Source: Spirochaetes bacterium ADurb.BinA120
GTDB lineage: Bacteria > Spirochaetota > UBA4802 > UBA5368
Direction: 5' to 3'
NCBI GenBank assembly: GCA_002069125.1
Contig: MVZN01000001.1
Coordinates: 5,909 to 69,908 of the forward strand
Length of the DNA stretch: 64,000 nt
This document shows, in pieces, positions 1,165 to 63,390 of this stretch. The position numbers and the translations under genes are program-made. Every line of letters begins with the position of its first letter. Position 1 is the stretch's first letter. The notes below the pieces were generated by a model. It was given only the letters and a program-made list of their open reading frames with translations, searched no databases and was not told the DNA's origin.

Positions 1165-1245
1165 TGCCGAGCTTCCAACTTTCAACTTTGAACTTTCGAC
1201 TGTTATCCCCCGGCGCTCTGCGCCACCCCCGGAGGGGGTTTAGGC
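1165..1245 (+). repeat. R1 mosaic repeat: 7-bp AACTTT[C/G] tract followed by double-hairpin core CCCCCGGCGCTCTGCGCCACCCCCGGAGGGGG
   Basis: Near-identical core at 9921, 26990-27320 (reverse-complement), 46800-47110, 60257, 60533 and 63103. Confidence 0.85.
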
Positions 1246-1706
1246 TAATGTCGCCTGCCAGATACCGACTCACACCGGCCGGCACATCGAACATTCATTA
1301 AGCAGCGCGCACGGATGCGCGCGAGGCAAGGTCGCCCGCTATGCCGTCCTGGCGCAGGCGACACTTCCGACATCCTGTCGGTCGGATAGTCCAGGAGGGA
1401 CCTTCCGCAGCCGAACAGAAAGTCCATGGAAGAACCGACAGAAAAACGAAAAGAAACATTTCGACGGATAATCCCGAATTGCCTTTGATACATACATGCG
1501 GAAAGCCCAGGCTCCGCGCCGCTTGAGCGGCAAGCCCCCCGGCGTTTGAGGGCGCGTTTTTCTTTGGTTCTTTCTTTTTCCGCGATGAAAAAGAAAGAAC
1601 CAAGCCCAACGAGGCAGGGAGGCCTCACCCCTGCATGGGGCCCCATGCGAATCCTCGTTTTCTCCGCGCCTAAAAAGAAAAGGCGTAACCCCCCCGACGG
1701 GCGCGT

Positions 1707-3344
1707 TCATCCCCGCGAGCGTGGGGATTCCGTGGTCGTTCCTGCGACTAGAAAGCCTCGCGAACCGATGGCGACCGCAAGCTTGATAAGGAGCAGGAGT
1801 ATGAGGGGCGACCAGAGAGCAAGGCCGAAGAAGCGTACGCCAAAAATATTTTCGTCGGGAGCGAATGTAAAGACGGGCAGAAAACACCCGCCAATTATGG
1901 CGGTTTCTATTAAGAGCAGGGCGAACACGTCCAAAAACGCGCCGGGAATCCTAAACTGAAGATAGAGCGGGCTGCCGCGAATAAGCCGTATGGTTAGCGC
2001 CGTTACGAATACCATTATCACAGCGTAAAGCGCCACGGCCGCGGAGTGGATGTGCGCCGAGTATATGATGCGCATGGCAACCCCTGCGGCGGCCACCACT
2101 GTTCCGTTTACGAGAAGCAGCATTCCCGTTCCGGCGGTCTGCCGCCGCATTACCATGGCGGTCAGCAGCAAAAGCGCGAGTGAGAAGATAAGCCTCTGGT
2201 ACAAAAGCAGGGTCTCCTTGCAGCGCTGCGGTCTTTCCAGAATGGCGGCCGTAAGGCGTTCGTCGAGCCGGGCATCATCCTCCCTGGCGGTCAGCCGGGG
2301 CGCGGGGATTATCGGGTTCACGAATCGGAAGGCGGCGACCATGCGCTCGCGAAGCGCGATCGATTCCTTAAGGATAGGTCCATAGTCTTTGCCGAGTACC
2401 TCGACAAGCGGGGGAACGGCGGAAAGGGCGGGAAGGGGGGCGCCGGCGGCCGCCGCCACGGTTGGGGCGATTGCCGCGTGATAAACGGTCCGCGAGACGC
2501 TTGTGCCGGTCAGAGAAGGCGCGAAAAGATACAGCGGAACGGCAATGGACGCGTCGTCGGTCCCTCCGTGGTTGCCGTCAACGTTCATGCCGTGGTCGGA
2601 GGCCACTATGACGAGCGCGCCGGGAATCCTTTTATCGAGCAGGCGGAATATCCCGCCGAGCAGGCCGTCGATGCGCGTGATCGAAGAGAGATAGCGCCTT
2701 CCGCTGTTGGTCCCGGTCGCGTGCGCTTCGTTGTCGGGCGAGAGGAAGTGAGCTACCGTAAAATAGGGGAGATCATTGCGGCGGATCATGGTCTCCACGG
2801 CGCGGGCCACCTCGGCCGGGTCGTCCCGCTCGCAACACTCGGCGGGGACGTAGAGCGCCTCTTTGCCGAACATCTCTTTGTACCATTCGAATCCCACAAC
2901 GGCGGATTTAAGCCCGACCCTGGAAAGCGAGTGAAACACCGTTGGCGCGTTGCTGCCGGCGCGCGAGCGGGTTTCGTTATTGACGACTCCGTGCATGTGG
3001 GGAGGAGCGCCTGTCAAGATCGATGCGTAATTCGGGGCCGACACGGTGGGAACCATGGCTCGGGCGTTCTCGTAGCGGAGCCCGAACCTTTGCCAGCGGG
3101 CCGATATTTCGGGGCAGATTTCGGGATCGTACAGGCTGTCGCGCGTCGCGCCGTCGAGAATAAAGAGGAGTACCGAAGGATACCGCGGGGTGCGCGGTTC
3201 CGGGTCCGGCGCGGCGGTTTTTATGGAATTCTCGGGGTATGGGCCGTGGAGGGGCGGAACGAAGCGGCCAAACCGATAATCGTTGACGAAAAGCAGGCGC
3301 ACCAGAAGCGCGAGCGAAAGCGCGATAAATACCGCTTTTTTCAT
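1707..3344 (-). CDS. Alkaline phosphatase superfamily / type I phosphodiesterase-nucleotide pyrophosphatase with signal peptide and C-terminal multi-TM domain
   Basis: MKKAVFIALSLALL signal peptide. Metal-binding core motifs (FILDG..., SAPNYASILTG, ASDHGM, GNHGG). About six hydrophobic helices in the last 150 aa. Confidence 0.75.
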   Translation of the reverse strand: MKKAVFIALSLALLVRLLFVNDYRFGRFVPPLHGPYPENSIKTAAPDPEPRTPRYPSVLLFILDGATRDSLYDPEICPEISARWQRFGLRYENARAMVPTVSAPNYASILTGAPPHMHGVVNNETRSRAGSNAPTVFHSLSRVGLKSAVVGFEWYKEMFGKEALYVPAECCERDDPAEVARAVETMIRRNDLPYFTVAHFLSPDNEAHATGTNSGRRYLSSITRIDGLLGGIFRLLDKRIPGALVIVASDHGMNVDGNHGGTDDASIAVPLYLFAPSLTGTSVSRTVYHAAIAPTVAAAAGAPLPALSAVPPLVEVLGKDYGPILKESIALRERMVAAFRFVNPIIPAPRLTAREDDARLDERLTAAILERPQRCKETLLLYQRLIFSLALLLLTAMVMRRQTAGTGMLLLVNGTVVAAAGVAMRIIYSAHIHSAAVALYAVIMVFVTALTIRLIRGSPLYLQFRIPGAFLDVFALLLIETAIIGGCFLPVFTFAPDENIFGVRFFGLALWSPLILLLLIKLAVAIGSRGFLVAGTTTESPRSRG

Positions 3345-3422
3345 GCGGCCGCCGCGCCATGAAAATCTATTGACACGATCATAGGCCCGCTTTAAGCTCC
3401 CCACTTCGTAATCACGCCCGAC

Positions 3423-4547
3423 ATGAGGTCCGCAGCTTTACAGACAATGAAAGAGACGAAGAAAAATCCGGCGCCGCAGGCGCGGCATTTTGTCCGGTTC
3501 GTTGATAAGTATTCCCCGCGAATTGACCTGTCAATAGAGAATTACTTCTCCGGGAAAAAAAAGGCCGCCGAACATCCCTTCATGGCGGAGATCTGGTCGG
3601 ATCTCGCGGAGTACTGCCTGCGGCCCGGCAAAAGGGTCCGCCCGCTCGTGCTCATCGCAGCCTTCCGCGGATACGGAGGCGAAAACTCCGCCATGCGGGC
3701 GATCATAGCGATGGCGGCCTCGCTCGAGCTAATGCACTCGTTCCTTCTCATACAGGACGATATCATCGACCGCTCCCACGTGCGCCGCGGCGGGGCGGCC
3801 TTTCACCTATTGATGCAAGGGCGTTTTTCGGGCGGTACGATAAACGAGGGCGTGGGGTCCGATGTCGCGCTGGTGGCGGCGGACGTGCTGTTCTGCGACG
3901 CCCTGCGGCTCGTTCTCGGCGCCGGGATAGGGGCGGAGGCCAAGACCGGCTTCCTTCGCCTCTTCGCGGACACCTATGAGCGTACGGCCTGGGGACAGAT
4001 CCTCGACATCGTAAACACCATGCCGCGCTCCCTTCACGCGGGCGATACGGCGGCGCACGAGGTCGGCATGATGAAGACAGCCTATTACACCGTCTACTAT
4101 CCGCTCCTGATGGGCTGCACGCTCGCGGGGGCGGCGACGGCCGGCGAGCGCCGCGCAATCGGGCGCTTTGCCCTGCCGCTCGGCCACGCCTTCCAGGTGC
4201 GTGACGACATACTTGGCGTCTTCGGCGACAGGGCCGAGATGGGGAAGTCGGCGGATTCGGACATACTCGAGGGCAAGAAGACGGTTCTCGTGCAGAATAC
4301 GATCGAGCGCCTGGGGCCTGTGGAAGGAAAGCGCTTCGAGTCCCTCTTCACGAAGGCCGCAAAGTCCGCGTCGGACCTGGACGAGATACGGGGGATGATA
4401 CGGGATAGCGGCGCGCTGGATAAGGCCGTGGATATGCACCGCAGGCTCGTCGACGAGGCCGTTCGCGCCTCCTCATCCCTCCTGATCGCCGATGCGGAGC
4501 GGGAGGTGCTCCTCGGATTGTGCGCCTCCATAGGAGCGCTTAAATAG
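3423..4547 (+). CDS. Polyprenyl synthetase family (FPP/GGPP synthase-like)
   Basis: Two aspartate-rich motifs, LLIQDDIIDRSHVRRG and FQVRDDILG. Confidence 0.8.
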   Translation: MRSAALQTMKETKKNPAPQARHFVRFVDKYSPRIDLSIENYFSGKKKAAEHPFMAEIWSDLAEYCLRPGKRVRPLVLIAAFRGYGGENSAMRAIIAMAASLELMHSFLLIQDDIIDRSHVRRGGAAFHLLMQGRFSGGTINEGVGSDVALVAADVLFCDALRLVLGAGIGAEAKTGFLRLFADTYERTAWGQILDIVNTMPRSLHAGDTAAHEVGMMKTAYYTVYYPLLMGCTLAGAATAGERRAIGRFALPLGHAFQVRDDILGVFGDRAEMGKSADSDILEGKKTVLVQNTIERLGPVEGKRFESLFTKAAKSASDLDEIRGMIRDSGALDKAVDMHRRLVDEAVRASSSLLIADAEREVLLGLCASIGALK

Positions 4548-4638
4548 ATTGCCGATATAGATTATGGTATACTCACCACGGACTTCCGGCACGGCCCGCT
4601 CGAAGGGCGCGTGACCGATCAGAGACAAGGGAGCGATA

Positions 4639-5331
4639 ATGAGAGCGGTTAAAAAGAAACGAACCCCGGACGAAAATTCCGGGAAATACCACAAGGATAC
4701 CTTCGACAAAATTTCGGACAAGAAACGCGAGAGGATAATAAAGATATCCACCGTGGAATTCGCCGAAAAGGGATTCAACGGGGCGAACGTAAATGTCATC
4801 GCGAACAAGGCGGGAATCAGCATAGGCTCAATGTACAATTACTTTTCGAGCAAGGAGCACCTCTTTCTCACCGTAGTGGACGAGGGATACAAGCTGCTCG
4901 AGGCGGCGTTTGCGGGAGCGGATCTGTCCAACGGCGACCTGTTCGACAAACTCGAAACGATCATCCGCGTAGCCCAGAAACATTCGCGTTCGCATCCGCA
5001 TTTCGTCCAGCTATACCAGGACATCACCACCGAAAGCCTCGCGCACCTTTCGGCGCGGCTGTCCCGCAAGATCGAGAACATCTCGGCCGTATTTTACAGA
5101 CATTACATCAACGAGGCCAGGGAGAAGGGCCTGGTGGACCCCTCCATCGACGAGCACGTCGCCTCCTACTGCATCGACAACATCATCGTACTCATGCAGT
5201 TCTCGTACACCTCCGAGTATTACAAGGAGCGTCTGCGCACCTTTGTGGGCGAGGACGCCCTCGAGGACGACGAGCGAGTTATTAAGGGGATGATGGATTT
5301 CATAAGGCACGCTATCGGGGCGCGCAAGTGA
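4639..5331 (+). CDS. TetR/AcrR family transcriptional regulator
   Basis: N-terminal HTH (RERIIKISTVEFAEKGFNGANVNVIANKAGISIGSMYNYFSSKEHLF). AAGGGAG RBS. Confidence 0.8.
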   Translation: MRAVKKKRTPDENSGKYHKDTFDKISDKKRERIIKISTVEFAEKGFNGANVNVIANKAGISIGSMYNYFSSKEHLFLTVVDEGYKLLEAAFAGADLSNGDLFDKLETIIRVAQKHSRSHPHFVQLYQDITTESLAHLSARLSRKIENISAVFYRHYINEAREKGLVDPSIDEHVASYCIDNIIVLMQFSYTSEYYKERLRTFVGEDALEDDERVIKGMMDFIRHAIGARK

Positions 5332-5381
5332 GCCCGGGGGCATCGATGTCCCGCCGGGGGGATGATGCGGAATAAAACCCG

Positions 5382-6809
5382 ATGACCATCGATATCGCCG
5401 TTATTCTGATATATATTGTACTTATCAATATAATCGGGCTCTGGTTTTCGGGCGGCTCGAGCGTAAGCGATTATTTCCTGGGAAACCGCTCGGTGCACTG
5501 GTTCCTGGCATGCCTCTCCATCGTCGCCACGGAAACTTCGAGTCTCAGCTTCATCTCGATTCCGGGGCTCGCCTATGCGAGCGGAACGGGGTTTTTACAG
5601 GTCACCTTCGGCTATCTCGCGGGCCGGATGCTTGTGGCCGCCTTCCTACTGCCGCGATACTTTCAGGGCGAATACGAAACCGTGTACGAATTCCTCCAGC
5701 GCCGATTCGGGCGGACGTCGCGGCGCGTGGTTTCGGTCATTTTCCACATAACGCGCCTCTTCGCCGACAGCGTACGCCTCTTCGCAACGGCCATACCGCT
5801 TACCGTAATGACCGGCTGGGACTACAGGCTTTCCCTGGCGGTTATCGGCGGGGCTACGTTCATTTACACCTTTTACGGGGGCATCCGCTCAGTCATCGTG
5901 ACGGACGCCCTGCAGCTCGCGCTGTACCTGTTTTGCGTGGGGCTCGGCGCGTACTGCGTGATGGACGAGCTCTCGCTCTCCCTCGGCGGCGTGTTCGCCC
6001 TCATACCTTCCGCCGATCTGGCCTTCGTCTCCTCCGGCCTTGGCGGCGGCGCGGCGAAGCTTTTCGGCTCGTACAACCTTCTCACCGGCATCGTCGGCGG
6101 GGCGTTTCTCTCGTTCGCCTCGCATGGCACGGACCACCTCATCGTTCAGCGCGTCCTGTCCTGCCGCGACGCCTCGTCGGCCCGCAAGGCCATGATAGCG
6201 AGCGGCTTTCTGGTTATCATGCAGATAGCGCTTTTCCTCCTGTTCGGCCTTTTCATCAAGGCGCTGTTCGGGGGCCGGCACTTCGACTCGAGCGATTCGA
6301 TAGTTCCATACTTTATCGTAAACCATCTGCCAGCGGGACTCAGGGGGCTAATGCTCGCCGGCATCTTCGCCGCGGCCATGTCGACCTTAAGTTCGTCCAT
6401 CAACTCGCTCGCATCATCGACCGCGCTCGACCTGCTGAGGCTCAAGGAGCGCCGGCTTTCCGAGCGCTGTAAAGTGGCCGCGGCTCGCGCAATCGCCTTC
6501 TTCTGGACGCTCGCTATCATCGGCGTCTCGGTGCTATTTCACGATTCGAAGAACCCGCTGGTGGAGGTCGGACTATCCATCTCCTCGGTGACTTACGGCG
6601 GGGTACTGGGGATCTTCGTTCTGGGCAGGTTCACCGACGGCATGGACCCGCGCGCGGCCCTTTTCGGGGTTTTTGCCGGGGTTCTCGCCGTGGTATCGGC
6701 CATGGCCTTTAGCTCGATTTTCTGGCTGTGGTACGTTGCGCTTGGATTCGGGGTGTGCGTGGCCGCGGCGCTTGCCGCCTCGAAGGCGGTCAGTTGGGGT
6801 CTTCGATGA
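5382..6809 (+). CDS. Sodium:solute symporter family (SSF) transporter
   Basis: About 13 TM segments. SSF-like motifs (DYFLGNRSV, GGIRSVIVTDALQ). Confidence 0.75.
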   Translation: MTIDIAVILIYIVLINIIGLWFSGGSSVSDYFLGNRSVHWFLACLSIVATETSSLSFISIPGLAYASGTGFLQVTFGYLAGRMLVAAFLLPRYFQGEYETVYEFLQRRFGRTSRRVVSVIFHITRLFADSVRLFATAIPLTVMTGWDYRLSLAVIGGATFIYTFYGGIRSVIVTDALQLALYLFCVGLGAYCVMDELSLSLGGVFALIPSADLAFVSSGLGGGAAKLFGSYNLLTGIVGGAFLSFASHGTDHLIVQRVLSCRDASSARKAMIASGFLVIMQIALFLLFGLFIKALFGGRHFDSSDSIVPYFIVNHLPAGLRGLMLAGIFAAAMSTLSSSINSLASSTALDLLRLKERRLSERCKVAAARAIAFFWTLAIIGVSVLFHDSKNPLVEVGLSISSVTYGGVLGIFVLGRFTDGMDPRAALFGVFAGVLAVVSAMAFSSIFWLWYVALGFGVCVAAALAASKAVSWGLR

Positions 6810-7737
6810 TCTTCAGCGAGGAATGCGATTCGAAGTGCTCCGGCGGTTCCCGGTCGAAGAGCAGGATGATCTCGGTTCGGACCTTGTTTCTTATTACGAA
6901 ATAATATTCCGATGTGAGCTTTCTCACAAGATCGATGCCCCGGCCGGTCTCGGAGACCTTGTCCGATATCTCCTCTCCTGTTTCGTACGCGCGAAGAATC
7001 ATCTGCGACTCCTCGACGGCCTTCCTGATGCTGTCCAGTATCTTATGTTTGGTCAGTTCGCCCTTGTAGTCGGTGATGGAAATGCCGTAAGCGTCCGCGC
7101 TGTGGGCGAAGAACAGGTCGACAAACTCCCCCTTCTTGAGGGTCACCTGGACGCGCTCCTCCTTCTCGCGAGTGTAGCCGTGCGAATGATAGACCGAGTT
7201 GATGATCAGCTCGTTGAGTATGAGGTTGAGGACCGATTTGTTCCGCACCTTTATCCCCCATTCATCGAGCTGCTTCATGAGGGTCGCTATTGAACCCCTT
7301 ATCCGGCCGGAGGCCGTTATGCGAATCTTCATAATGTCTTCGGCAGGAACGTCCATGTAGTTTTCCAGTCCGAAGATGTTTTTCCGGGTGATGAGTTTCC
7401 GGGCAAGGCTTACCAGCTCTTTTTCCCTAAGCGGCTTGTGGAGCACGTTTCCGATCCCCTCGCGGAAGATGTGCTCGAAAAAGGTATCGATGTCCTTTTC
7501 GGTGACCATGATGGCGGGGATGAAGGGATAGTAGTTCGATATATAATTGTACAGGTCGAAGGCGTTGTCGCCCGGCAGCTCCACTTCGGATACGATGAGG
7601 TCGAAATCGCTCGATTTGAGCCGGGCCATGGCGTCAAAGGCCGATTCGCAGCTTTCGACGTTATAGCCGGCTTCCGTAAACATGCGCGCGATCGTCTCGC
7701 GGTACGGGGTGAAGTCGACGATCAGAATATTGTACAT
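6790..7737 (-). CDS. Response-regulator receiver domain fused to histidine-kinase-like ATPase (anti-sigma-factor-kinase type) domain
   Basis: N-terminal REC (ILIVDF...DLIVSEVELPG...). C-terminal HATPase_c-like region (LILNELIINSVYHSHGY...ETGRGIDLVRKL). Its 3' end overlaps the SSF gene by 20 bp on the opposite strand. Confidence 0.65.
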   Translation of the reverse strand: MYNILIVDFTPYRETIARMFTEAGYNVESCESAFDAMARLKSSDFDLIVSEVELPGDNAFDLYNYISNYYPFIPAIMVTEKDIDTFFEHIFREGIGNVLHKPLREKELVSLARKLITRKNIFGLENYMDVPAEDIMKIRITASGRIRGSIATLMKQLDEWGIKVRNKSVLNLILNELIINSVYHSHGYTREKEERVQVTLKKGEFVDLFFAHSADAYGISITDYKGELTKHKILDSIRKAVEESQMILRAYETGEEISDKVSETGRGIDLVRKLTSEYYFVIRNKVRTEIILLFDREPPEHFESHSSLKIIEDPN

Positions 7738-7993
7738 TGGGTCACCGTGTCCATGACCGGAATGCCCGCACCGGGCCCCGGGGGCTTATGCCTTATTATC
7801 GGCCATTTTGTCCTAAAGGATAATACGGCCGGCGCGATACCAAAATCTCTTGGACCGGAGGCCCGGTCCAGTGTAAAATATGGTTGAAGAACACTGCGGC
7901 CCTGTGATATTATCCAACCGCTTGCGCGGATCGTTCCATGCCCGGCGGCATTCGGACGCTACAACGCCCCGGTAATCGTCGAGGGGCGGATTC

Positions 7994-8713
7994 ATGGGGG
8001 ATATTGCGATGAAAAAAGCTTTTACGATGTTTGTGTGCCTGCTGTCGGCGGCGGTGCTTACGAATACGACTGCCTGGTCTCAGGAGAAGAAGGAGCCGGA
8101 GCGCGGCAGCGCGCTAACCTCGGAGAAGCTGGACAGCGAGGGTAGGGCGCTCGATGAACGGATCGTCGCGCTCGGAAAGAAGATAGAGGATATAGTCGTC
8201 AGATACAAACTCATGTCGACCAAGGACATCCGGGTGGTGCCCTACCAGGTAAGCTACCGGCTTGCGGACGGATATATAGAGATACAGCGCCACAGCTACG
8301 AAAGGGACGAGCTCACCAGACAGGTAACGCGGCTCAAAAAAAAGACCATCCGAATATATTCGTCGGGATCGAGTGTTTCGAAGGTGGAATCGGAGATCAT
8401 GGAACGCGATTACAACGGCGGCCTCTCCACCCAGGTGATCATTGTGGACCCCACGCCCACAGCGGCGGGTACCGATGATATAATCTTTACGCATATCTTA
8501 AACGGCAAAAAGCTCCTCGACGGTCGGAAACTGGGCGAGGTAAAGAACTCGACGGCCTTCCCAGTGCGTAACAACCTCAAGCGCGAGTTCCTGGTGCCGC
8601 ACCTCGAGTATTTCAGCCAGGTCCTCCTATCCATCGCCGAGACCTATGCCAGGGGAATAAAGGACTCCGACAGCCAGATGTACGAATTCCTCAAACAATC
8701 GACCTCGTACTGA
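7994..8713 (+). CDS. Hypothetical secreted protein (signal peptide)
   Basis: MKKAFTMFVCLLSAAVLT signal sequence. No recognisable domain. The alternative start MKK is at 8009. Confidence 0.5.
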   Translation: MGDIAMKKAFTMFVCLLSAAVLTNTTAWSQEKKEPERGSALTSEKLDSEGRALDERIVALGKKIEDIVVRYKLMSTKDIRVVPYQVSYRLADGYIEIQRHSYERDELTRQVTRLKKKTIRIYSSGSSVSKVESEIMERDYNGGLSTQVIIVDPTPTAAGTDDIIFTHILNGKKLLDGRKLGEVKNSTAFPVRNNLKREFLVPHLEYFSQVLLSIAETYARGIKDSDSQMYEFLKQSTSY

Positions 8714-9791: not shown

Positions 9792-9896
9792 ACGCTATCC
9801 AATAGCCCGCCCGGGGCGAGCCTGTCAAAGCAAAATCGCTTAAGATTGTTATCTTGAGGCGCCGCCAGGATTGTCAGTAGGTTTTCCCTTTAGCCT

Positions 9897-10012
9897 ACTC
9901 CAGAGCTTCGAGACTAACGCCCCCGGCGCGTTGCGCCACCCCCGGAGGGGGTTTTGCTGATGCCGATGGCTTTTCTTTCAGCTTTGAACTTAGAACTTTG
10001 AACTTTCGACTG
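9897..10012 (+). repeat. R1 mosaic repeat: leader CTCCAGAGCTTCGAGACTAACG, core, then AACTTT[C/G] heptamer tract
   Basis: Core CCCCCGGCGCGTTGCGCCACCCCCGGAGGGGGTTTTGCTGATGCCGATGGC, followed by gctttgaacttagaactttgaactttcgact. Confidence 0.85.
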
Positions 10013-10202
10013 CTAATCATCCTTCCCCAAGTGGGGCACGTCCCTTTGGTGGGTACTTGTTTTTAGTCGATCCCGGCGGTTCTTTGTTGACAAAAAGTCT
10101 TTGACAAAAACGGCCATAAAATACTTTTTCATAAAATCACAATCGGTAACCGCCTGCCGGGTGCATCCGGGGCGCAGTCCGGTAAATGCGGGTTTATCGC
10201 CA

Positions 10203-12229: not shown

Positions 12230-12230
12230 T

Positions 12231-15194: not shown

Positions 15195-15197
15195 GGC

Positions 15198-26761: not shown

Positions 26762-26805
26762 CGATTTCCCCTTAACGCGGCCCGGGGTACCGGGATTCGA
26801 TTAAC

Positions 26806-26836
26806 AGTTCAAAGTTCAAAGTTGAAAGTTGAAAGC
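26806..26836. repeat. 7-bp microsatellite (GTTCAAA/GTTGAAA x4)
   Basis: cagttcaaagttcaaagttgaaagttgaaagc. Confidence 0.8.
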
Positions 26837-26845
26837 TAGAATCGG

Positions 26846-26945
26846 CCATCGTCCACAAGGGGCTACAGCCCCTTGCCCTGTAATAAGGTGATCATTTGTA
26901 GAATCTGGCTAATATCTTCGGAGAACAAGGGGTTGTAATCCCTTG
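26846..26945 (+). repeat. R2 element (about 100 bp) with hairpins GGGGCTACAGCCCC and AAGGGGTTGTAA
   Basis: Second copy in reverse orientation at 63210-63311 (about 85% identity by eye). Confidence 0.8.
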
Positions 26946-26989
26946 CGATTACACGGCGAGCATATAAGGCCTTTCCGTAAATAATCCTA

Positions 26990-27320
26990 CCGGCACTCGG
27001 TATCGGAAAAACCCCCTCCGGGGGTGGCGCAGCGCGCCGGGGGATAACAGTCGAAAATTGAAAGTTCAAAGTTGAAAGTTGAAAGTTTAGCCATCGGTAT
27101 CGGCAAACCCCCCTCTGGGGGTGGCGCAGCGCGCCGGGGGATAACAGTCGAAGGTTGAAAGTTCAAAGTTGAAAGTTTAGCCATCGGTATCGGGAAAACC
27201 CCCTCCGGGGGTGGCGCAGCGCGCCGGGGGATAACAGTCGAAAGTTGAAAGTTCAAAGTTGAAAGTTTAGCCAACGGTATCGGCAAAACCCCCTCCGGGG
27301 GTGGCGCAGCGCGCCGGGGG
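26990..27320 (-). repeat. Tandem array of four about 90-bp R1 units (reverse orientation): core AACCCCCTCCGGGGGTGGCGCAGCGCGCCGGGGG plus heptamer linkers
   Basis: Units start near 27001, 27091, 27181 and 27271, differing by only a few bases. The last unit is truncated. Confidence 0.9.
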
Positions 27321-27508
27321 CGTTGAGGTGGCCGGCCGCGCCACCGGGCTATAAATTTAACACAAATCCGTTAATAAGTACAGGTTTCTTTCTTGACACC
27401 CGCTTGCTCAGGGCGTTTCAAATTAGATACCGTCATGGCCCGGCGGATTCTGGCCGTGACTCATGTTCGAGGAGGAACGGCAATAAATAGAGGGCACAGG
27501 AGGTGGTT

Positions 27509-46564: not shown

Positions 46565-46781
46565 TGTTCCTCCGGGAAAGCCCTGTCTTTTGATGAGCAA
46601 CTGAGACCTTCGGCGTTAATTTGTCAAACAAGTACGGGGTGAAATCCAGTTATTAAACGCTAATTTTACATCGATGTAACCTTGCATGCGGTCCCGATTA
46701 TACTGACGGAAAGTCGGGCCGGAAATTTGAGCATAAAGGGCCGCTTGGCTTCTCTTTTAGGCTTTTCCTTTTACTTGCTCC

Positions 46782-47112
46782 AGGGCTGCGGAGGCTAACG
46801 TCCCCGGCGCTCTGCGCCACCCCCGGAGGGGGTTTTGCTGATGCCGATGGCCAAACTTTCAACTTTCGACTGTTATCCCCCGGCGCTCTGCGCCACCCCC
46901 GAAGGGGGTTGCCCGATGCCGATGGTCAAACTTTCAACTTTCGACTGTTATCCCCCGGCGCTCTGCGCCACCCCCGGAGGGGGTTGCCCGATGCCGATGG
47001 CCAAACTTTCAACTTTGAACTTTCAACTTTCGACTGTTATCCCCCGGCGCGCTGCGCCACCCCCGGAGGGGGTTGCCCGATGCCGATGGCCAAACTTTCA
47101 ACTTTTAAGGGC
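46782..47112 (+). repeat. Tandem array of four R1 units (forward orientation), each core plus TTGCCCGATGCCGATGGCCAAACTTTCAACTTTCGACTGTTAT linker
   Basis: Leader CTCCAGGGCTGCGGAGGCTAACG, then four repeats of CCCCCGGCGCTCTGCGCCACCCCCGGAGGGGG with heptamer linkers. Confidence 0.9.
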
Positions 47113-47336
47113 AGTCATAAAAATTAGGCTTTATCGTCGGCCGAAGATGGACAGAAAAGACTAACTACTTAATCTGCAGGTAGTTAGGTTATAAAGAAAA
47201 GTTAAAATTATTAGTTTTAGGACTTCCCTTGATTTCTAAGAGAGGTATAGGATAAATTGGTCAATGCCGGTCGGCCGCGATGTTTTGGCGGGTGGCGGGC
47301 CGAGGGCATTTCCGGGGATATTATCGCCGGATTATA

Positions 47337-55597: not shown

Positions 55598-56419
55598 TCA
55601 TTTCCCTTGTTCTATACCTATTTCCGAAATACAGGTATCGTTGTACTTCGTTCCCCTGTACACGGAAAGTATCTCGACGGCGAGAAAGGTGCTGTCTTTG
55701 TGATCAACGGCCGGTTTCCCGTTTTCGATAACGCTCCGGAAGGCCAGTCCCCTGCGAGGCGGCAGGGGGAGCGGTTGCCAGCCGTTCAGATCCTTCAGGG
55801 TGACTTCATGAGAGCCAACCACGGTAATGTCTTCGAAAACGAGACCAGTTTCGTACTGGCCGATCTCCTTGCGGGCCTGTCTGGCCTGTAAGGCCCATAT
55901 CCTGATTTTTCGGGCGCGGTTGTTGGCCTTATATAGATGGTCGCTCGCGCCAAGCCCGCTCCATATCCGTACGGGTTTTGTCGTGTCCACCTTCACGACG
56001 AGTACTTCGCCGACACCTTCGTCCTTTTTTCCTTCGCACCATGCGGTCGAGGTATCGCCGTCCATGGCGCTGAGGGCGGTGTACATGCACGACCAGTTTT
56101 CAAGGGCCCTCCAGGATGCGTATTCGGCCTCGTCTTCGTCCATGTTCGCGGTGGGAATTGGCTTGACGGGAGGCTTGCCGGTCGCCCCGAGGTGTGAGCT
56201 GCTCCAGTCGCAGATATCGCCGCCCATATGCACGCCTCCCCACCAGGTGAGCGCGCCGATGGATCCTTTCTTTAACAATTCGGGCAACCTGGGATTGCCG
56301 GCCCTGCCACAAGGGGTGGCCGTTTCGGCCTGAGCGCGGACATTCGTGGAGAATGACATGAACGCGACCGCGAGCACCATCGGTACGACCGCACAATATT
56401 TTCTGATGAAGGATGACAT
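55598..56419 (-). CDS. Hypothetical secreted protein (possible discoidin/F5-8-type-C-like carbohydrate-binding domain)
   Basis: Signal peptide MSSFIRKYCAVVPMVLAVAFMSFSTNVRAQA. DGDTSTAWCEG motif is reminiscent of discoidin domains. GGAGG RBS. Confidence 0.5.
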   Translation of the reverse strand: MSSFIRKYCAVVPMVLAVAFMSFSTNVRAQAETATPCGRAGNPRLPELLKKGSIGALTWWGGVHMGGDICDWSSSHLGATGKPPVKPIPTANMDEDEAEYASWRALENWSCMYTALSAMDGDTSTAWCEGKKDEGVGEVLVVKVDTTKPVRIWSGLGASDHLYKANNRARKIRIWALQARQARKEIGQYETGLVFEDITVVGSHEVTLKDLNGWQPLPLPPRRGLAFRSVIENGKPAVDHKDSTFLAVEILSVYRGTKYNDTCISEIGIEQGK

Positions 56420-56831
56420 GGTGTTTCCTCCATACCGGCCACATCGTGTATCGGGCATGCGAAGATCGGAATGATGAACCGTACCACCATGATTTCTCCT
56501 TGTCAAACGATAAAGACACCGTGCATCTACTATCAGTGCGGCTTGCTCCGCGACCGTCCCGGGCGTTCCGGATGGCAGGCCTCAGCAAGAGCCGTGATTC
56601 GGCGCCCTCCTGAAGGTAGTATACGGATAGGCTGATCGCGGATAAAATATAACGAGCGTTCACTCATATTTTTGCAACCTGTACGCCGGACCCGTGTCTG
56701 TCTGTGTATACGGGGCGTGGATTATCGGAGGCATGCCTTTTCCGGCAATACCGGTGGTTTCATACGGCCTCTATACCGTACGCCCGTAACGCCATGGAAT
56801 CCTGAATACGGAGGAGTTAAAAATCGTCCGC

Positions 56832-58115
56832 ATGAAAAAGAAATTCGACGAAACGGACCTCGCACGGAAATCACTCGTGTTAACCGGAAAGCTTATCGAA
56901 GAGTGCGGTCCGCGACTGGCGGGTGGAGAGGGCGGCCGAAGGGCCGCGGAAAAACTGCATGAGAACCTGGAACGCTGCTGCGACAGGGCGCACCTGGAAA
57001 CATTCAGCATGCATCCCGGCTCATTCCTGGGCTTTATGTACACATCGTCCACCCTGTTTATCGCGGCGACCTTCCTGCTGCTGTTCGATTACGTGCTTGC
57101 GGCGGCGGCAGGGTATACGCTGGCACAGATCATGGCCTTCACCCAGTTCATCTGTTACTGGCAGGTGTTCGATCCGCTGTATCCCGAACGCGAAGGACGA
57201 AACGTGTATGGCGTCATAGAACCGGTGGAAGAGGCGCGCTCGCAGATAGTCGTAAGCGGGCATCATGATAGCGCGTACGAGTTTACCCTCATGGCGCGTA
57301 TGCCGCGCGGCTACCGGATCTGCGTTGCGGGAATGATATCCGCTCTTACGGTTGCGCCGGTTTTCGCCTGGATAATCGCGGGGTTTCGATTCATGGAAGG
57401 AACAACACCGCAATTCGCCACTTATTTCACCTGGGGCGCTTTCGTCTGTTTCGTGTTCATAGTGCCGATGTATTTTTTTATGGGCAAAAACGGTACTCCC
57501 GGGGCCGGCGACAATCTTATAGCGTCGGCAATGGTGGTCGAGCTGGCGCGATATTTTGGAGAATTGAAGAAGGCCGGAGGGGGCGTGCCGCGGCACACGC
57601 GGCTCGTGTTCGCCAGTTTCGACGCGGAAGAGGCGGGGCTCAGGGGGTCGCGGGCATTCGCGAAGCGACACCGCGCGGAACTGCTCTCGATTCCGACCAG
57701 GGTCTTAAACCTTGACAGCATATACCGCGCGGACAGGATAAAATTTCTCGTGTCGGATATCAACGGGTTCGTGAAGCTGTCCCGCTCCATGGCGGAGGAA
57801 TGCGTCGCCCTCGCCGGGAGGGCCGGGTACGAGGCGAAGCTCTTCCGGGTATATCCCGGCGTAGGCGGCACGGACGCCGCGGAATTCGCGAAGATAGGGG
57901 TGGAGGCGACCACGCTGATCGCCCTTCCCACCGACGTCGAAAAGGAGCGCATGGTGTATCACACGCGGGATGACACCGTCGAGAACATCGAGCCGGGGGC
58001 CGTGGAGGCCTGTCTTAAAATAGTCCATGAATATGTCATGAAGAAGTGCGCCGATACCTGTGGGGAAGGGACCGCAACGGCCGCCGGGGTTCTGGGTTTA
58101 CCGGAGTTGAAATAA
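56832..58115 (+). CDS. M28-family (Zn) peptidase with inserted transmembrane segments
   Basis: SGHHDSAYEF and FASFDAEEAGLRGSRAF motifs of M28 aminopeptidases. Confidence 0.6.
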   Translation: MKKKFDETDLARKSLVLTGKLIEECGPRLAGGEGGRRAAEKLHENLERCCDRAHLETFSMHPGSFLGFMYTSSTLFIAATFLLLFDYVLAAAAGYTLAQIMAFTQFICYWQVFDPLYPEREGRNVYGVIEPVEEARSQIVVSGHHDSAYEFTLMARMPRGYRICVAGMISALTVAPVFAWIIAGFRFMEGTTPQFATYFTWGAFVCFVFIVPMYFFMGKNGTPGAGDNLIASAMVVELARYFGELKKAGGGVPRHTRLVFASFDAEEAGLRGSRAFAKRHRAELLSIPTRVLNLDSIYRADRIKFLVSDINGFVKLSRSMAEECVALAGRAGYEAKLFRVYPGVGGTDAAEFAKIGVEATTLIALPTDVEKERMVYHTRDDTVENIEPGAVEACLKIVHEYVMKKCADTCGEGTATAAGVLGLPELK

Positions 58116-58141
58116 GGAAGGAGGCAATCGGAAAAACCGTC

Positions 58142-60031
58142 CTATACAATGTCGGGAATGCTGATGCTGAAACGGGCGCCATGGTCGTTTTCGATACGAA
58201 TGGTGCCGTTTAGCTGTTCCAACATCATGCGCACGAGCTCCAGCCCGAAACCGGCGGTCCCGCCGTAAAGGACCGCCTCGGGGAGTCCGGGGCCGTCATC
58301 GTGTACGACGATCTCGACCGTATTTTTATTTCTCGAAGCCGAAAGGGTAATGCTCCCATTCGGCCTCCCTGTATAGGCGTATTTCATGGCATTTGTGAGG
58401 AGTTCGTTAATGATAATTCCTATCGGTATCAACTTGTCCGTATTCAAGGTAAAATCGTCTATTTGTTTTTCGGACGTTATGACCGCCGAGAGGGTGCTGG
58501 AGGTTATAATATCGTCCATCAGAGGTTCCAGATACCCGCGAAGCGATATGCTTCTATAGTCCGCCGATCGAAACAGCCTGTCGTAGACTATCATCATGCT
58601 GTTTATCCGCGATCGGGCGTCCCGCAGGGTGTCCGCGGCCGAGGCCGAATCGGTGCTGTTGGCCTGAAGGGAAAGCAGGCCCATCATGGTGTTCATGTTG
58701 TTTTTAACGCGGTGATGCACCTCCCTTAGAAGCAGCTCCTTCTCCTCCAGGAGGCGGCTTATCTCGATCGAGGATTCCATCTGGTTCACCACCTTCCAGG
58801 CGGAATCCATCAATATGGTAAGATGCTGCACGTCGCTTTCATCATAATCCGTCTCCTTGTTGCCCACCCCCACTACGGCGACGATTTTATCATTTACAAT
58901 TAGGGGAATCGTCAGGAAACGGGTAAGTTCTACATGGCCCTCCGGATACCCCTTTTTAAGGGGATGGGGATTCTGGAAATCGTTCACCATGATCGTCTTC
59001 CTCTGGCGCACCGCCTCTCCCCATATTCCGGTTCCATGGAGCGGATAGATCGTACTGGGGTTCTGTACGGTGCAGCTTTCCATGACCTCCTTAGACCAGG
59101 TGTTCAGCGTGAACAGTCTCTTCTCTTCGTCATAGAAATAGATATATCCGTATAAACTGGAGGTCAGGGCCAGGGCCTGTTTGAGGGCGTAGTCGAGGAA
59201 GTCCTTGACCGATTCGCTCCGATATTGTAGAATTTCCACCTGGCTTTGCATCCTTGCCGCATTGCGTTTCAACTCCTCCTCCATCTTCTTTTGAACGGAT
59301 ATGTCATGGATTATTGAGTACAGCAATTGTTTCCCCTTGAAGGGAATAGGGCCGGAATAAACCTCGACCTCCCGGATGTCGCCGGAGGCGCGCCTGTGGC
59401 GGAAAAAAAAGACGTTTCGCTTTTCTTTTTCCGCCATTTCCATCTCGCGCCGGGTTTCCTCCGGGGATAGGGCGTTTATATCGAATATCTTTTTGTTTCT
59501 GAGTTCGTCGAGGCTCCATCCATACCAGCGGGAGGCGGATTTGTTCGCGTCGATTATATCGCCGGTTTTCGGATCTACGAGCAGCATGATGGACTGGCTA
59601 TTCTCAAACAATGCGCGATAGCGCTCCTCGCTTTCTCCCAGCATCCTGTGAGATCTATATAAATCGAAAGCCGTCTCTATGGTTGAGCGCAAAGCGGGCC
59701 ACCCGCTGCCTTTGATGACATATCCGTAACCGGGTATTTCCCTGGTTTTTTCGTAGTTGTTCTCTTCAAAACGAGAGGCGAGGAATACTATAGGGGATTG
59801 GGTTTTTCGGGTTATTTCATGGGCTATTTGGATAAAGTCGACGCTGTTGTCCGAATCCGTATCCAAAAGGACCAGGCCAGCGTTCGTCTTGCTACGGATG
59901 ATTTCCATGGCCTCCTCGCCGTTTGCCGCAGCGAGAACGGAATAACCAAAACCCTCGAGGGCCCTTTTGGTCTCGAGCCTGTTTGAGCTATCGTTTTCTA
60001 TAAGAAGTATGGGCTTACGTTTTATCGTCAC
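58142..60031 (-). CDS. Hybrid signalling protein REC-PAS-GAF-histidine kinase (HWE/HisKA_2 type)
   Basis: N-terminal REC (ILLIEND...LLDTDSD). HisKA_2 H-box EVHHRVKNNM. Confidence 0.75.
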   Translation of the reverse strand: MTIKRKPILLIENDSSNRLETKRALEGFGYSVLAAANGEEAMEIIRSKTNAGLVLLDTDSDNSVDFIQIAHEITRKTQSPIVFLASRFEENNYEKTREIPGYGYVIKGSGWPALRSTIETAFDLYRSHRMLGESEERYRALFENSQSIMLLVDPKTGDIIDANKSASRWYGWSLDELRNKKIFDINALSPEETRREMEMAEKEKRNVFFFRHRRASGDIREVEVYSGPIPFKGKQLLYSIIHDISVQKKMEEELKRNAARMQSQVEILQYRSESVKDFLDYALKQALALTSSLYGYIYFYDEEKRLFTLNTWSKEVMESCTVQNPSTIYPLHGTGIWGEAVRQRKTIMVNDFQNPHPLKKGYPEGHVELTRFLTIPLIVNDKIVAVVGVGNKETDYDESDVQHLTILMDSAWKVVNQMESSIEISRLLEEKELLLREVHHRVKNNMNTMMGLLSLQANSTDSASAADTLRDARSRINSMMIVYDRLFRSADYRSISLRGYLEPLMDDIITSSTLSAVITSEKQIDDFTLNTDKLIPIGIIINELLTNAMKYAYTGRPNGSITLSASRNKNTVEIVVHDDGPGLPEAVLYGGTAGFGLELVRMMLEQLNGTIRIENDHGARFSISIPDIV

Positions 60032-60119
60032 GCTGTTTGCCTCGCTGGCGTTGTTGCCGATAGCGCCAGCTTCTAATCCTTACATCATCGTGAATGATTT
60101 GTCAAGGCCGGCCATGTTT

Positions 60120-60750
60120 TTCTTTTAACGCCCTCACCCCCGGCCCCCTCTCCCATTAAGCTCGGGAAAAAAGGAGAGGGGGAGTTCACGCGATGAGCTT
60201 GAGGTTTTTGGCTCAATTATGAGAGATTCTCACTCCAGGTATTCTACGAGCCTAATGCCCCCGGCGCGCTGCGCCACCCCCGGAGGGGGTTTTGCTGATG
60301 CCTATGGCCGAGCTTTGAACTTTGAACTGCTTAACGCCCTCACCCCCGGCCCCCTCTCCCATTAAGCTCGGGAAAAAAGGAGAGGGGGAGTCTCATGGTA
60401 GAATAAGTTTGAAATCGTAACCATAAAGCACCAGCTCACATACTTTCAACTTTTACCTTTGAACTTTCGACGGCCTTTCCTTTCGACTGCCTCTCCTCAA
60501 CTTCCAACTGCTTACCTCCTTCGCCCCCGGCGCGCTGCGCCACCCCCGGAGGGGGTTTTGCTGATGCCTATGGCCGAGCTTTGAACTTTGAACTGCTTAA
60601 CGCCCTCACCCCCGGCCCCCTCTCCCATTAAGCTCGGGAAAAAAGGAGAGGGGGAGTCTCATGGTAGAATAAGTTTGAAATCGTAACCATAAAGCACCAG
60701 CTCACATACTTTCAACTTTTACCTTTGAACTTTCGACGGCCTTTCCTCTG
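60120..60750. repeat. Composite repeat region: R3 hairpin (x3), R1 core (x2), heptamer tracts, and a near-perfect tandem duplication (period 276 bp)
   Basis: 60257-60490 and 60533-60746 are essentially identical over about 214 bp. R3 at 60124, 60336 and 60596. Confidence 0.85.
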
Positions 60751-60901
60751 AAAAATGTTACATTATGGATATAAAAAAAATACTGAAAGCATATTTAAAA
60801 TGGTTTTCAATTAATTTGAGCCCATATTTATATGACAGGCATGATACGCCCCCCTGTGGGTGATGCCGGTTGCGATAGAATGAGTGTCAGGAGAGAAAGA
60901 T

Positions 60902-62878
60902 ATGCCAAACATTGATTATTTCAACCTGCCCTGGAAGGACCAGTGGGAATGGGAGCGGACGAAACTTCCCACCGTTACGCAGAGATACGTAGAGAATTCC
61001 AAAACCTACGCCGCCAAGGACCTTCAGCGTTTCAACCCGGCCCTTTACAAGGGGGACGGCAACGGCACCATGACCTGGGGCGAGGCCTACGAGAGGGTCG
61101 AGAACTACGCCTGCGGCCTCATGAGCCTTGGCCTGAAAAAGCAGGAGATGGTGGCGATAATGTCGGCCAGCGGCCCTTACTGGACGCATGCAGACATGGC
61201 GCTAGCCTGCGCCAACGGTGTTAGCGTAGCGATATATCCAACGCTTTCTTTAAAAGAGGTCTCGTATATCGTCAACGACTCCGCGAGTAAATTCATCTTT
61301 TTAAGGGGCGCCGACGTACTGAAAATGGTCCTCTCCGGCATTGACCGGATGCCGAAGCTTGAAAAGATCATCGTGATGGACCGTGAATACAAGGGCCAGG
61401 ATTCAAGGGTCATCGGGATGGGCGAGCTTGAGAGGATGGGTGAGGAATGGAAAAAAACGAAGGCGAATTACGAAGCCTTTATCGTTAGGCGCGACGGGGT
61501 CGTTCTCGACGACATATACACCATTCTCTATACCTCCGGCACCACGGGACAGGGCAAGGGCGTGGTGCTTACGCATCATAACGCCTCTTCGAGGATGAAC
61601 GGGGTAAATGAATTTTTCAAGTATTGCGGTATGGACTTCAAAACTGAATACACCACCCTGTGTTTTCTGCCCCTTGCCCACATATTCGACAGGGGCTCGT
61701 GCCAGCTTGCCGCCATCTTCAACGGATGCACCATCTGCTACGCCGATTCGCCCGGAACCCTGGTGGCCGATTTACAGAAATACAACCCGCACTGGATAAA
61801 CTGCGTACCGCGTCTTTACGAAAAGATATACATCCAGCTCCAGCAGACTATGGGCGAGAGCGGGCTTAAGCGAAAACTCTTCGACTGGGCGCTGGGCGTC
61901 GGGGAACAGGTCTTTATGCGGCGTTATGATCCCGAAACCGACACCTATAACATGGGCCACGACTATGACGTAACGCGGGACCTGCCGCTTGGATTGAAAA
62001 TCAAATTCAGGATAGCCGACAAACTTTTCGCCAAGGTGCGCGCGCTGTTTGGGAGTAACTTTAAGCACTCCTTCTCCGCCAGCGCCTCAATATCGCCCGA
62101 GCTCCTAAGATTTTTCTATATAATCGGGATCAGGGTGAGCGAGGGATACGGTTCCACCGAGAGTTTCAACGCCTGCGCCAACATGCCTCTTCGGGCCTGC
62201 AGGCCCGGTTCCGTCGGTCTGGAATCAAACGGCAGCAGACTGCGCGTGTCCGAAATTGGAGAGCTCGAGCTGCGCGGCGCGGGCATCTTCAGGGAGTACT
62301 GGAACAAGCCCGAGGAGACCCGTTCCTCGTTTACGGAGGACGGATGGTTCAAGACGGGCGACAAGGTGGAGGTTGACCGATTCGGTTACTATAAGATAGT
62401 AGATCGCATCAAGGCGATCATCTGCCTTTCCAGCGGCAAGAACGTGGCGCCGGCGAAGATCGAAAGTCTGTTCGCCACCAGCCCCTACATTGACCAGGTG
62501 TTCACCATCGGCGACGAGCGTGCGGTGATCTCCATGCTCTTCGTCCCGAACCTTACATATTTCAAGGACAAGTTCGACCGGGAGGGCATTGGATACGATA
62601 AAAACGCCGTGGTGATAGACAGCTCGGCCGGAGCGCCCATTGTGGTCAAGGTGGGGCCCGACTTCATCGAGAAGGGGAACATACGCGGCCTCATCGCCGA
62701 GGAGATCGCAAAGGCCAACAGGGAGCTCGAGGGTTTCGAGCAGATCAAACAGCATACGGTGCTTTGCGAACGCTTTACCGAGCAGAACGGCATGCTGACC
62801 CCGACGCAGAAAGTGAAGAAAAGGGTGGTCCTCGATGTGTACTCCGGGGAGATAGAGAAGATGTATTCTCGGCCCTGA
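60902..62878 (+). CDS. Long-chain-fatty-acid--CoA ligase (AMP-binding)
   Basis: YTSGTTGQGKGVVLTHHN AMP-binding motif, YGSTE and GWFKTGD motifs. RBS CAGGAGAG. Confidence 0.85.
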   Translation: MPNIDYFNLPWKDQWEWERTKLPTVTQRYVENSKTYAAKDLQRFNPALYKGDGNGTMTWGEAYERVENYACGLMSLGLKKQEMVAIMSASGPYWTHADMALACANGVSVAIYPTLSLKEVSYIVNDSASKFIFLRGADVLKMVLSGIDRMPKLEKIIVMDREYKGQDSRVIGMGELERMGEEWKKTKANYEAFIVRRDGVVLDDIYTILYTSGTTGQGKGVVLTHHNASSRMNGVNEFFKYCGMDFKTEYTTLCFLPLAHIFDRGSCQLAAIFNGCTICYADSPGTLVADLQKYNPHWINCVPRLYEKIYIQLQQTMGESGLKRKLFDWALGVGEQVFMRRYDPETDTYNMGHDYDVTRDLPLGLKIKFRIADKLFAKVRALFGSNFKHSFSASASISPELLRFFYIIGIRVSEGYGSTESFNACANMPLRACRPGSVGLESNGSRLRVSEIGELELRGAGIFREYWNKPEETRSSFTEDGWFKTGDKVEVDRFGYYKIVDRIKAIICLSSGKNVAPAKIESLFATSPYIDQVFTIGDERAVISMLFVPNLTYFKDKFDREGIGYDKNAVVIDSSAGAPIVVKVGPDFIEKGNIRGLIAEEIAKANRELEGFEQIKQHTVLCERFTEQNGMLTPTQKVKKRVVLDVYSGEIEKMYSRP

Positions 62879-63084
62879 TGCGCAAAGTTATATCTTGCTA
62901 TACACCCGAACGGAAGGGATCGTCCCAAAAGTTACTTTTGGGAAGTCCCTCTCTTCAGTCGATGAAAGATATAACGGCCTTCGTTACTTTCGTGGGGCGA
63001 AAGACATCATGGAAGCGCCGCGCTTCGTTACGGGCTACGCCCTACTAAGCGTCTGCTTGGATAGTCTGTAGGTTTTTCCTAATA

Positions 63085-63390
63085 CTTACTCCAGGGGTGC
63101 GGAGACTAACGCCCCCGGCGCGCTGCGCCACCCCTAGAGGGGGTTTTGCTGATGCCTATGGCCGGTTGGATTATTTACGGATAGGCCATATATGCTCGTC
63201 GTGCAAAAGTTAGGGGTTACAACCCCTTGTTCTCTGAAGATATTAGCCTGATTCCACGAAGAATCCCCTTATTACAGAGTTAGGGGCTGTAGCCCCTTGT
63301 GGACGATGACCTATTCAAACTTTGACCTTTGACCTTTGACCTTTGACCTTTGAACTTTGAACTTTCAACTTTCGACTTTCGACTGTTTCC
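63085..63390. repeat. Composite repeat locus: R1 (forward) - R2 (reverse) - 7-bp microsatellite (CTTTGAC x5, AACTTTG/C)
   Basis: Mirror image of the 26806-27320 locus architecture. Confidence 0.85.

Follow-up and report, generated by a model that had tools for sequence, protein, structure and literature searches.

A 64,000-nucleotide (nt) stretch of the Spirochaetes bacterium ADurb.BinA120 genome (contig MVZN01000001.1, positions 5,909 to 69,908; hereafter the window) carries between its genes a 32-nt double palindrome that we call R1 (CCCCCGGCGCKCTGCGCCACCCCCGGAGGGGG). With somewhat better than even confidence, we read R1 as the core of a new family of non-coding, non-autonomous, intergenic DNA repeats resembling REPs (repetitive extragenic palindromic sequences) and bacterial interspersed mosaic elements (BIMEs), a family that has been amplified locally, shuffled by recombination and, we infer, dispersed. 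The family looks previously undescribed, and a selfish or near-neutral DNA repeat is the most economical reading of it. Since the stems and the 5' C-run of R1 are kept while its loops drift, constraint seems to act on the geometry of a hairpin or palindrome and not on a message.

A pattern search that allowed up to three mismatches found 13 copies of R1 in the 64-kb window, each with 0 to 2 mismatches, whereas 100 dinucleotide-preserving shuffles of the window yielded no match (expected 0 versus 13 observed). The repeat family described as GC-rich and palindromic in an earlier note on this DNA is therefore real. All 13 copies lie outside genes, as that note had held in calling them strictly intergenic, and they are spread over six intergenic regions, two of which hold the 4-unit direct arrays that it had also reported. 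Half of these regions (3 of 6) lie between divergent genes, which agrees with its remark that R1 often does so. Its count of seven intergenic loci has to be lowered to six, since the copies at 60258 and 60524 share one intergenic region and one tandem duplication, and two of its positions, 60533 and 63103, become 60524 and 63112. An open reading frame (ORF) at 46835-47164 merely runs through the repeats; given that unit periods of 75, 76, 89, 90, and 97 nt break the reading frame, we rejected a coding potential for the arrays. By self-BLAST, the dispersed repeats of the window are essentially limited to six R1 blocks (1058-1241, 9868-10015, 26802-27328, 46758-47108, 60125-60747, and 63059-63391), bar one 40-bp segment.

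The general array unit runs from the core through a trailer (TTTTGCTGATGCCGATGGCC or a variant of it) and two to five AACTTTS heptamers to GACTGTTAT, and the array periods of 75 to 97 nt differ by multiples of 7. The minus-strand array (27012-27320), whose units consist of core, trailer, AACTTTS heptamers, and GACTGTTAT, has its four cores at 27012, 27109, 27199, and 27289 (periods of 97, 90, and 90 nt). The plus-strand array (46801-47072) has its four cores at 46801, 46877, 46952, and 47041 (periods of 76, 75, and 89 nt) and is preceded by a leader at 46778-46800. Two further plus-strand cores (60258-60289 and 60524-60555) lie inside a 266-bp tandem duplication (60257-60747; 1.8 copies, 100% identical) that holds R1, trailer, heptamers, and a hairpin repeat termed R2; its perfect identity implies either a very recent event or an assembly effect. 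The remaining three copies are single and also on the plus strand. The copy at 1207-1238 has no mismatch and TCT as loop 1, with AACTTTS heptamers before it (1177-1197) and the trailer variant TTTAGGCTAATGTCGCCTGCC after it. The copy at 9920-9951 has GTT as loop 1, a diverged leader (9897-9919), and a trailer (9952-9971), and sits between a GNAT gene on the minus strand and a ferredoxin/VOR operon on the plus strand. The copy at 63112-63143 has the loop 2 variant TAGA, a leader (63089-63111), and a trailer (63144-63163). The leader CTCCAGGGCTGCGGAGRCTAACG, previously assigned to most copies, was thus found at only three of them (46778, 63089, and in diverged form 9897), while the downstream trailer of the GCTGATGCCGATGGCC type does follow 10 of the 13 copies with at most four mismatches.

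R1 is also abundant beyond the window. A degenerate pattern scan of metagenomes returned at least 114 stretches, and the family counts outside the window given here derive from the matches listed in that scan. After chance and coding matches had been removed, a profile search of the collected sequence placed R1 in at least 83 loci and in at least 105 unique flanking contexts in metagenome contigs. Across these contexts, the conserved block comprises only the 32-nt core and ~3 nt on each side (~38 bp in all), with ACG or TAT at its 5' edge and TT(T) at its 3' edge.

Three independent R1 fragments (L031 5766-5789, L055 9864-9887, and L007 1987-2011) retain the 5' flank followed by positions 1 to 14-17 of the core. 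All three stop in the 3' arm of hairpin 1, and fragments with the 3' part only were not seen among the copies collected. The common end of these shortened copies may be a preferred breakpoint, although three cases are anecdotal.

The two stems of R1, GGCGC-N3-GCGCC and CCCCC-N3-GGGGG, each comprise 5 bp and enclose a 3-nt loop, and variation is concentrated in the two loops, the stems being almost fixed. In the window copies, which were not chosen by the metagenome scan pattern, 4 of the 6 loop sites are variable compared to 2 of the 26 other sites (P = 0.0056, Fisher test). The same pattern holds over 147 copies among the matches listed, with at least 13 different loop 1 triplets, and the 5' C-run is kept even though the scan pattern did not include it and the predicted fold leaves it unpaired. 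The minimum free energy fold consists of two adjacent hairpins both for RNA (-18.7 kcal/mol) and for DNA (-11.3 kcal/mol), and 98.4% of stem cells are paired over 74 unique copies among the matches listed. The two adjacent hairpins proposed earlier thus agree with the predicted fold, although this fold is not significantly more stable than those of composition-matched shuffles (z = -1.1 and -1.7). Within the stems, C-to-T changes are roughly as frequent as G-to-A changes and thus favor neither strand. A constrained hairpin structure is plausible on these predictions, and the data fit constraint at the RNA level and at the DNA level alike.

Neighboring copies of R1 are always direct repeats. 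Among the matches listed, all 45 unique pairs of copies lying within 400 bp of each other are in direct orientation and none is inverted, and the direct orientation also holds for pairs separated by unrelated modules (for example, in L045). Relative to genes, the orientation of R1 is random, without a fixed rule with respect to transcription. The 48 unique R1-bearing intergenic regions among the matches listed comprise 17 divergent, 13 convergent, and 18 tandem regions, and in the tandem regions 7 copies point the same way as the genes and 11 the opposite way. R1 orientation showed no relation to local GC skew at 45 loci. Neighboring R1 clusters on one contig mostly share the same orientation (~10 of 13), which is only suggestive.

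R1 co-occurs with the trailer, the heptamers, the leader, and the modules R2, R3, and R4 in varying orders; on other contigs, array units of 82 nt and 145 nt contain different intervening modules, and one array has ten units. The commonest companion is the heptamer array (AACTTTG / GACCTTT / AACTTTC), of which the window has a copy at 63317-63384 on the plus strand; others lie at 1177-1197, 9982-10006, and 47004-47031 (plus) and at 26810-26837, 27060-27087, 27150-27177, and 27240-27267 (minus). R2 (CGCCCTCACCCCCGGCCCCCTCTCCC...GGAGAGGGGG) is a GC-rich hairpin repeat with a ~10-bp stem, found at 60129-60188 (plus), with more copies at 1066-1135, 60335-60394, and 60601-60660; it is also present in many metagenome loci in either orientation relative to R1 (reversed in L060).

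R3 is a module of ~155 nt that directly follows R1 and its trailer (63161-63320, plus; second copy 26837-26994, minus), and five more unique full-length copies elsewhere (L001, L014, L044, L045, and L083) each lie downstream of R1. It starts with GGATTATTTACGGATAGGCC and has two palindromic segments, AAGGGGTTACAACCCCTT and AAGGGGCTGTAGCCCCTT, with mutually inverted 25-nt arms around a variable center, at which the L001 copy carries a 28-bp palindromic insertion. [quoted passage not shown] R4 (AGCAGCGCGCACGGATGCGCGCG...GTCGCCCGC...CCGACATCCTGTCGGTCGGATAGTCC) lies downstream of R1 at 1290-1395 (plus) and is a run of GC hairpins, namely, GCGCGCA-CGGA-TGCGCGC, GTCGCCCGC...GCAGGCGAC, and CCGACA-TCC-TGTCGG, the first of which loosely recalls the stem of the type I-C CRISPR (clustered regularly interspaced short palindromic repeat) repeat. 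It recurs upstream or downstream of R1 (L050 1650-1760; L007, L088, and L049); the L050 copy, which follows a 3-unit R1 array, gave 83.6% identity over 384 nt.

The R1 mosaics vary even among closely related strains. Five of the six R1 intergenic regions show length or module variants among ~99%-identical strains, and the structural differences seen among assemblies with ~99 to 100% identical flanking genes lie in the R1 mosaics; the other gene coordinates are identical across those contigs, apart from a few differing start calls. At the 1207 locus, three independent assemblies carry an extra 152-bp module, inserted exactly where the heptamers meet the first C of the core, and single-nucleotide polymorphisms in the neighboring heptamers suggest that this module is a replacement by recombination. 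The intergenic region with the 63317 heptamer array measures either 712 or 684 bp, each in several independent assemblies, and differs in heptamer number. The other variants come from one assembly each: L139 carries six units at the 27012 array, where the window has four; L127 carries three at the 46801 array, again compared with four; in L144 another module takes the place of the leading one at 60258; and in L140 the sequence diverges inside the 60258 mosaic and is followed by different genes. In L118, the left flank differs from window position 1166, with recX/alaS in place of a type I-C cas operon and with two extra R1 copies, a breakpoint due either to a difference between strains or to chimeric assembly at the repeat. 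We rejected L042 as an orthologue of the 9920 locus, since the module is common to both but the flanking genes are not.

The lineage that hosts R1 is an uncultured member of the Spirochaetota found in anaerobic digesters. Proteins encoded in the window are identical to those of metagenome-assembled genomes named "Spirochaetes bacterium ADurb.BinA120" and "Spirochaetota bacterium," and the window segment recurs at 99 to 100% identity in many anaerobic-digester assemblies. Two ADurb.BinA120-like assemblies, GCA_022704565.1 and GCA_029565585.1, are fragmented. R1 is widespread in related digester contigs. A search of 185,579 species-representative genomes turned up the core on three contigs only, two of them ~1 kb long and two labeled Spirochaetota; such few and short contigs fit assemblies that break at the repeat. 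No match was found in collections of viral contigs, plasmids, and phages. A syntenic relative (L135), whose glutamine synthetase III (GS-III) is 87% identical, is free of R1, the heptamers, and all other modules over 22 kb. Between ksgA and GS-III, this relative has amtB-glnK (P-II; L135 7984-10001), which is absent from the window, where an R1 array fills the gap (46565-47336). A second relative (73% identity) also lacks the R1 modules, and a contig of ~83% nucleotide identity (L036) has one R1 copy with different loops. On the sequences compared, R1 is lineage-specific, the nearest syntenic relative being without its modules.

Since the strain-level alleles differ in unit number and module content, they indicate local amplification and reshuffling. 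Amplification would involve 75- to 97-bp direct tandem units (core, trailer, and AACTTTS heptamers) and would proceed by replication slippage or unequal recombination, and the mosaics would be reshuffled by recombination between dispersed copies. The dispersal of the core to new intergenic sites, which we infer, would require a trans-acting enzyme that recognizes the hairpins; the obvious candidate would be a REP-associated tyrosine transposase (RAYT)-like HUH/Y1 transposase acting on single-stranded DNA. Given that a sharply bounded unit of 32 to 38 bp occurs in more than 100 contexts, with no target-site duplication or flanking direct repeat visible at the sharply bounded copies in the listed contexts, enzyme-mediated, hairpin-directed dispersal of the IS200/RAYT type is suggested. 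Any effect of R1 on neighboring genes would be secondary.

Several observations weigh against this interpretation. Recombination alone might explain the mosaics, and the variants come from short-read metagenome assemblies, which are prone to collapse and chimeras at repeats. We found no pair of orthologous sites, one empty and one filled, that would document transposition of a single R1 core. A RAYT- or IS200-like gene, of the kind that the earlier note had proposed to look for elsewhere in the genome, did not emerge from 914 kb of R1-bearing loci plus the window: tblastn gave no match below E = 0.7 with E. coli TnpA_REP (identical to PDB 4ER8), a Pseudomonas RAYT-like sequence, and an IS200-like consensus as queries, a single-sequence search being insensitive and the genome incomplete. 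The R1 copies never form inverted doublets, in contrast to REPINs (REP doublets forming hairpins), and they lack the GTAG tetranucleotide; on the reverse strand, a GTGG overlaps the first stem (GGGGGTGGCGC) in a non-canonical arrangement. Finally, the 74 unique copies yielded no compensatory stem change, and the conservation of the stems is due in part to ascertainment, given that the scan pattern itself fixed them; nine unique copies that escape the pattern show one-sided stem changes only. Since the stems hardly vary, covariation across copies is uninformative rather than negative and supports the hairpins neither way.

We compared R1 with known systems of short intergenic repeats. The REP and BIME sequences of Enterobacteria, Pseudomonas, and Stenotrophomonas are likewise ~30 to 40 bp long, GC-rich, stem-loop-forming, extragenic, and dense (13 R1 copies per 64 kb), and they occur singly or clustered with other conserved motifs in clusters tied to recombination (PMC3184786). 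R1 fits the generic description of a REP (short [~20 to 40 bp], GC-rich, stem-loop-forming, extragenic, and multicopy) and, as a unit mixed with other motifs, that of a BIME mosaic. It differs in having two adjacent 5-bp hairpins where a REP has one longer imperfect palindrome, in being frequent between divergent genes, in sharing no sequence similarity with these elements, and in its host phylum. In E. coli BIMEs, each REP is oriented opposite to the one before it, whereas successive R1 units are always direct. The earlier comparison with REP/BIME-type mosaics therefore stands as regards an extragenic palindromic repeat in module mosaics but not as regards alternating or inverted orientation.

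The REPIN-RAYT systems studied by Bertels and Rainey, Nunvar, Ton-Hoang, and Messing resemble R1 as hairpin-constrained populations of non-coding repeats with conserved stems. In these systems, the genome has one RAYT gene (a Y1/HUH transposase), as a rule with the REPs on either side of it. REPINs are defined by inverted doublets, although tandem repeat arrangements of up to five occur in P. fluorescens SBW25 (PMC3337134), and a GTAG (or GTGG) tetranucleotide 5' of the palindrome is a feature of REP-RAYT systems (PMC3184786). With no inverted pair among 45, R1 is not a REPIN. Neisserial NIME elements are linked to recombination (PMC3184786). Like the R1 mosaics, the BOX and the neisserial NIME/Correia elements are modular and intergenic, with a variable number of internal units; the R1 mosaics differ in sequence and have neither fixed outer modules nor terminal inverted repeats. 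The pneumococcal BOX architecture is boxA-boxB(n)-boxC. The AACTTTS module recalls the short tandemly repeated heptanucleotide repeats (STRR) that Mazel et al. reportedly described in heterocystous cyanobacteria in 1990. Both are intergenic tandem heptanucleotide arrays, that of AACTTTS with a strain-variable copy number, but sequence and phylum differ, and AACTTTS is a module of a larger R1-containing unit.

Searches for known families agree with the earlier statement that the sequence is unrecognized: Rfam 15 gave no match over the whole window at the gathering threshold and only hairpin noise at permissive E values, and the exact sequence is not printed in the searchable literature. Resemblance to KOPS, Chi, dif, and attC was rejected by sequence inspection.

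Could R1 instead be a double-stranded DNA site that serves the host? In this case, the palindromes would bind a dimeric nucleoid-associated protein, gyrase, or a factor like integration host factor (IHF), and the arrays would insulate transcription units from one another, topologically or transcriptionally, a role proposed for E. coli BIMEs, to which IHF, Pol I, and gyrase bind (PMC3184786). With its 3-bp spacer free to vary, a pair of palindromic half-sites suits dimer binding no less than hairpins, and relative to tandem regions, divergent and convergent ones carry R1 more often than the background would suggest (the 17, 13, and 18 regions above versus a background of 68, 63, and 192). On the other hand, unit number and module content vary among near-identical strains and the syntenic relative is entirely without the elements, both of which argue against an essential site; the neighboring genes are functionally unrelated, and no candidate protein was identified. 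We therefore regard a host-serving site as possible but unlikely.

An element acting at the RNA level seems to us improbable. R1 would then be an intrinsic terminator, an mRNA-protecting 3' hairpin like some REP and SMAG units (which are reported to affect mRNA stability [PMC3184786]), or part of a small RNA or attenuator, and consistent 3' ends at GGGGGUUUU would be predicted. TTTT does follow the second hairpin in many copies, and R1 directly precedes R3, which has promoter-like and hairpin features. However, the T-run is not conserved (three of the four units of the 46801 array read GGGGGTTGCCC), terminator and promoter scans of three regions flagged no R1 copy, and Rfam has no match. The orientation of R1 is unbiased in tandem regions (7 co-oriented versus 11 anti-oriented), and 17 regions are divergent; the absence of compensatory changes and the similar frequencies of C-to-T and G-to-A changes, which favor neither strand, also speak against an RNA-level element. 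At three copies, 9 to 10 of 11 leader positions are complementary to the 5' arm of hairpin 2, but an alternative leader-R1 pairing as an attenuator was rejected, since the leader is present on these three copies only and does not covary with the loop 2 variants.

Quite improbable, in our view, is a structure-specific enzyme acting on single-stranded DNA that is not a RAYT. R1 would be its recognition hairpin, and the enzyme would add units in one orientation only, building oriented arrays of non-coding "cassettes" (heptamers, R2, R3, and R4) between R1 sites, with a related system (F2, described below) in other phyla. The direct-only orientation of R1, the module junctions exactly at the 5' edge of the core, and the three copies ending in hairpin 1 are compatible with such an enzyme. 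If true, this mechanism would parallel the growth of integron or CRISPR arrays, but with non-coding units.

A classical MITE moved by a DDE transposase is very improbable. R1 is indeed short, non-coding, multicopy, and intergenic, but the ends of the repeat blocks showed no terminal inverted repeat of at least 8 nt, no target-site duplication is visible at the sharply bounded copies, and the conserved unit measures only ~38 bp. Moreover, the R1-bearing loci contain no multicopy transposase-like ORF and no multicopy ORF with a Pfam domain near R1; two recurrent ORF clusters near R1 without a Pfam match are probably translated repeats. A CRISPR-like or degenerate CRISPR array is hardly credible, notwithstanding the regular, partly palindromic 32-bp repeat, the direct arrays, and the cas3, cas5, cas8c, and cas7 genes upstream of window position 1 in strain contigs. 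Its "spacers" are not unique, each unit repeating the trailer and heptamer modules of the others. The R1 copy closest to cas3 stands alone, ~1 kb from the operon and on the wrong side of it, and the arrays are scattered among housekeeping genes.

To our knowledge, work on REP/REPIN-type repeats has been confined almost entirely to Proteobacteria. If R1 is a REP/BIME-like family, such a dense, well-bounded, hairpin-constrained family in an uncultured Spirochaetota lineage would carry the REP/REPIN phenomenon into another phylum, and its direct-only arrays with a nested minisatellite (7-bp heptamers inside 75- to 97-bp units) would fall outside the inverted-doublet REPIN model. For this abundant digester lineage, it is also at the R1 mosaics that metagenome assemblies break or differ. 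Given that representative genomes hold the core on three contigs, two of them ~1 kb long, the arrays could be used to mark strains and are likely to give rise to misassembly.

The same metagenome scan found a second double-hairpin family, F2 (CCACCCCGGCGCTTCGCGCCACCCCTCC-NNN-GGAGGGGAAT). F2 has the first hairpin and the 5' C-run in common with R1, a likeness partly imposed by the scan pattern; its second stem is longer than that of R1, and the loops vary here too. The contigs that carry F2 have 45 to 65% GC and come from termite-gut and other metagenomes, one of these contigs being labeled Proteobacteria (L057 1-190, L077 8803-8996, and L092 418-603, as well as L005, L030, L037, L082, L110, L112, and L117). 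Its copies form 45-bp direct tandems and inverted doublets ~150 bp apart; the latter resemble REPINs and are absent from R1. F2 may be a relative of R1 in other phyla, and the two families together hint at a wider class of double-hairpin repeats.

The genes that flank the R1 regions of the window are all ordinary chromosomal genes: a sulfatase, a GNAT protein, a 2-oxoacid:ferredoxin oxidoreductase operon, a class IV aminotransferase, and a class II aldolase, as well as GS-III, KsgA, a histidine kinase, and an acyl-CoA ligase. Window positions 1-217 lie inside cas3, and the minus-strand operon cas3, cas5d, csd1, and cas7 continues upstream in L119, L120, L122, and L123. The 40-bp segment that stands apart from the R1 blocks in the self-BLAST (1564-1603) is an isolated hairpin-former (~1563-1604) with one self-BLAST partner. 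Rfam sees only miRNA-like noise in it, and it is located within a 460-bp non-coding stretch that extends from R4 to the sulfatase gene.

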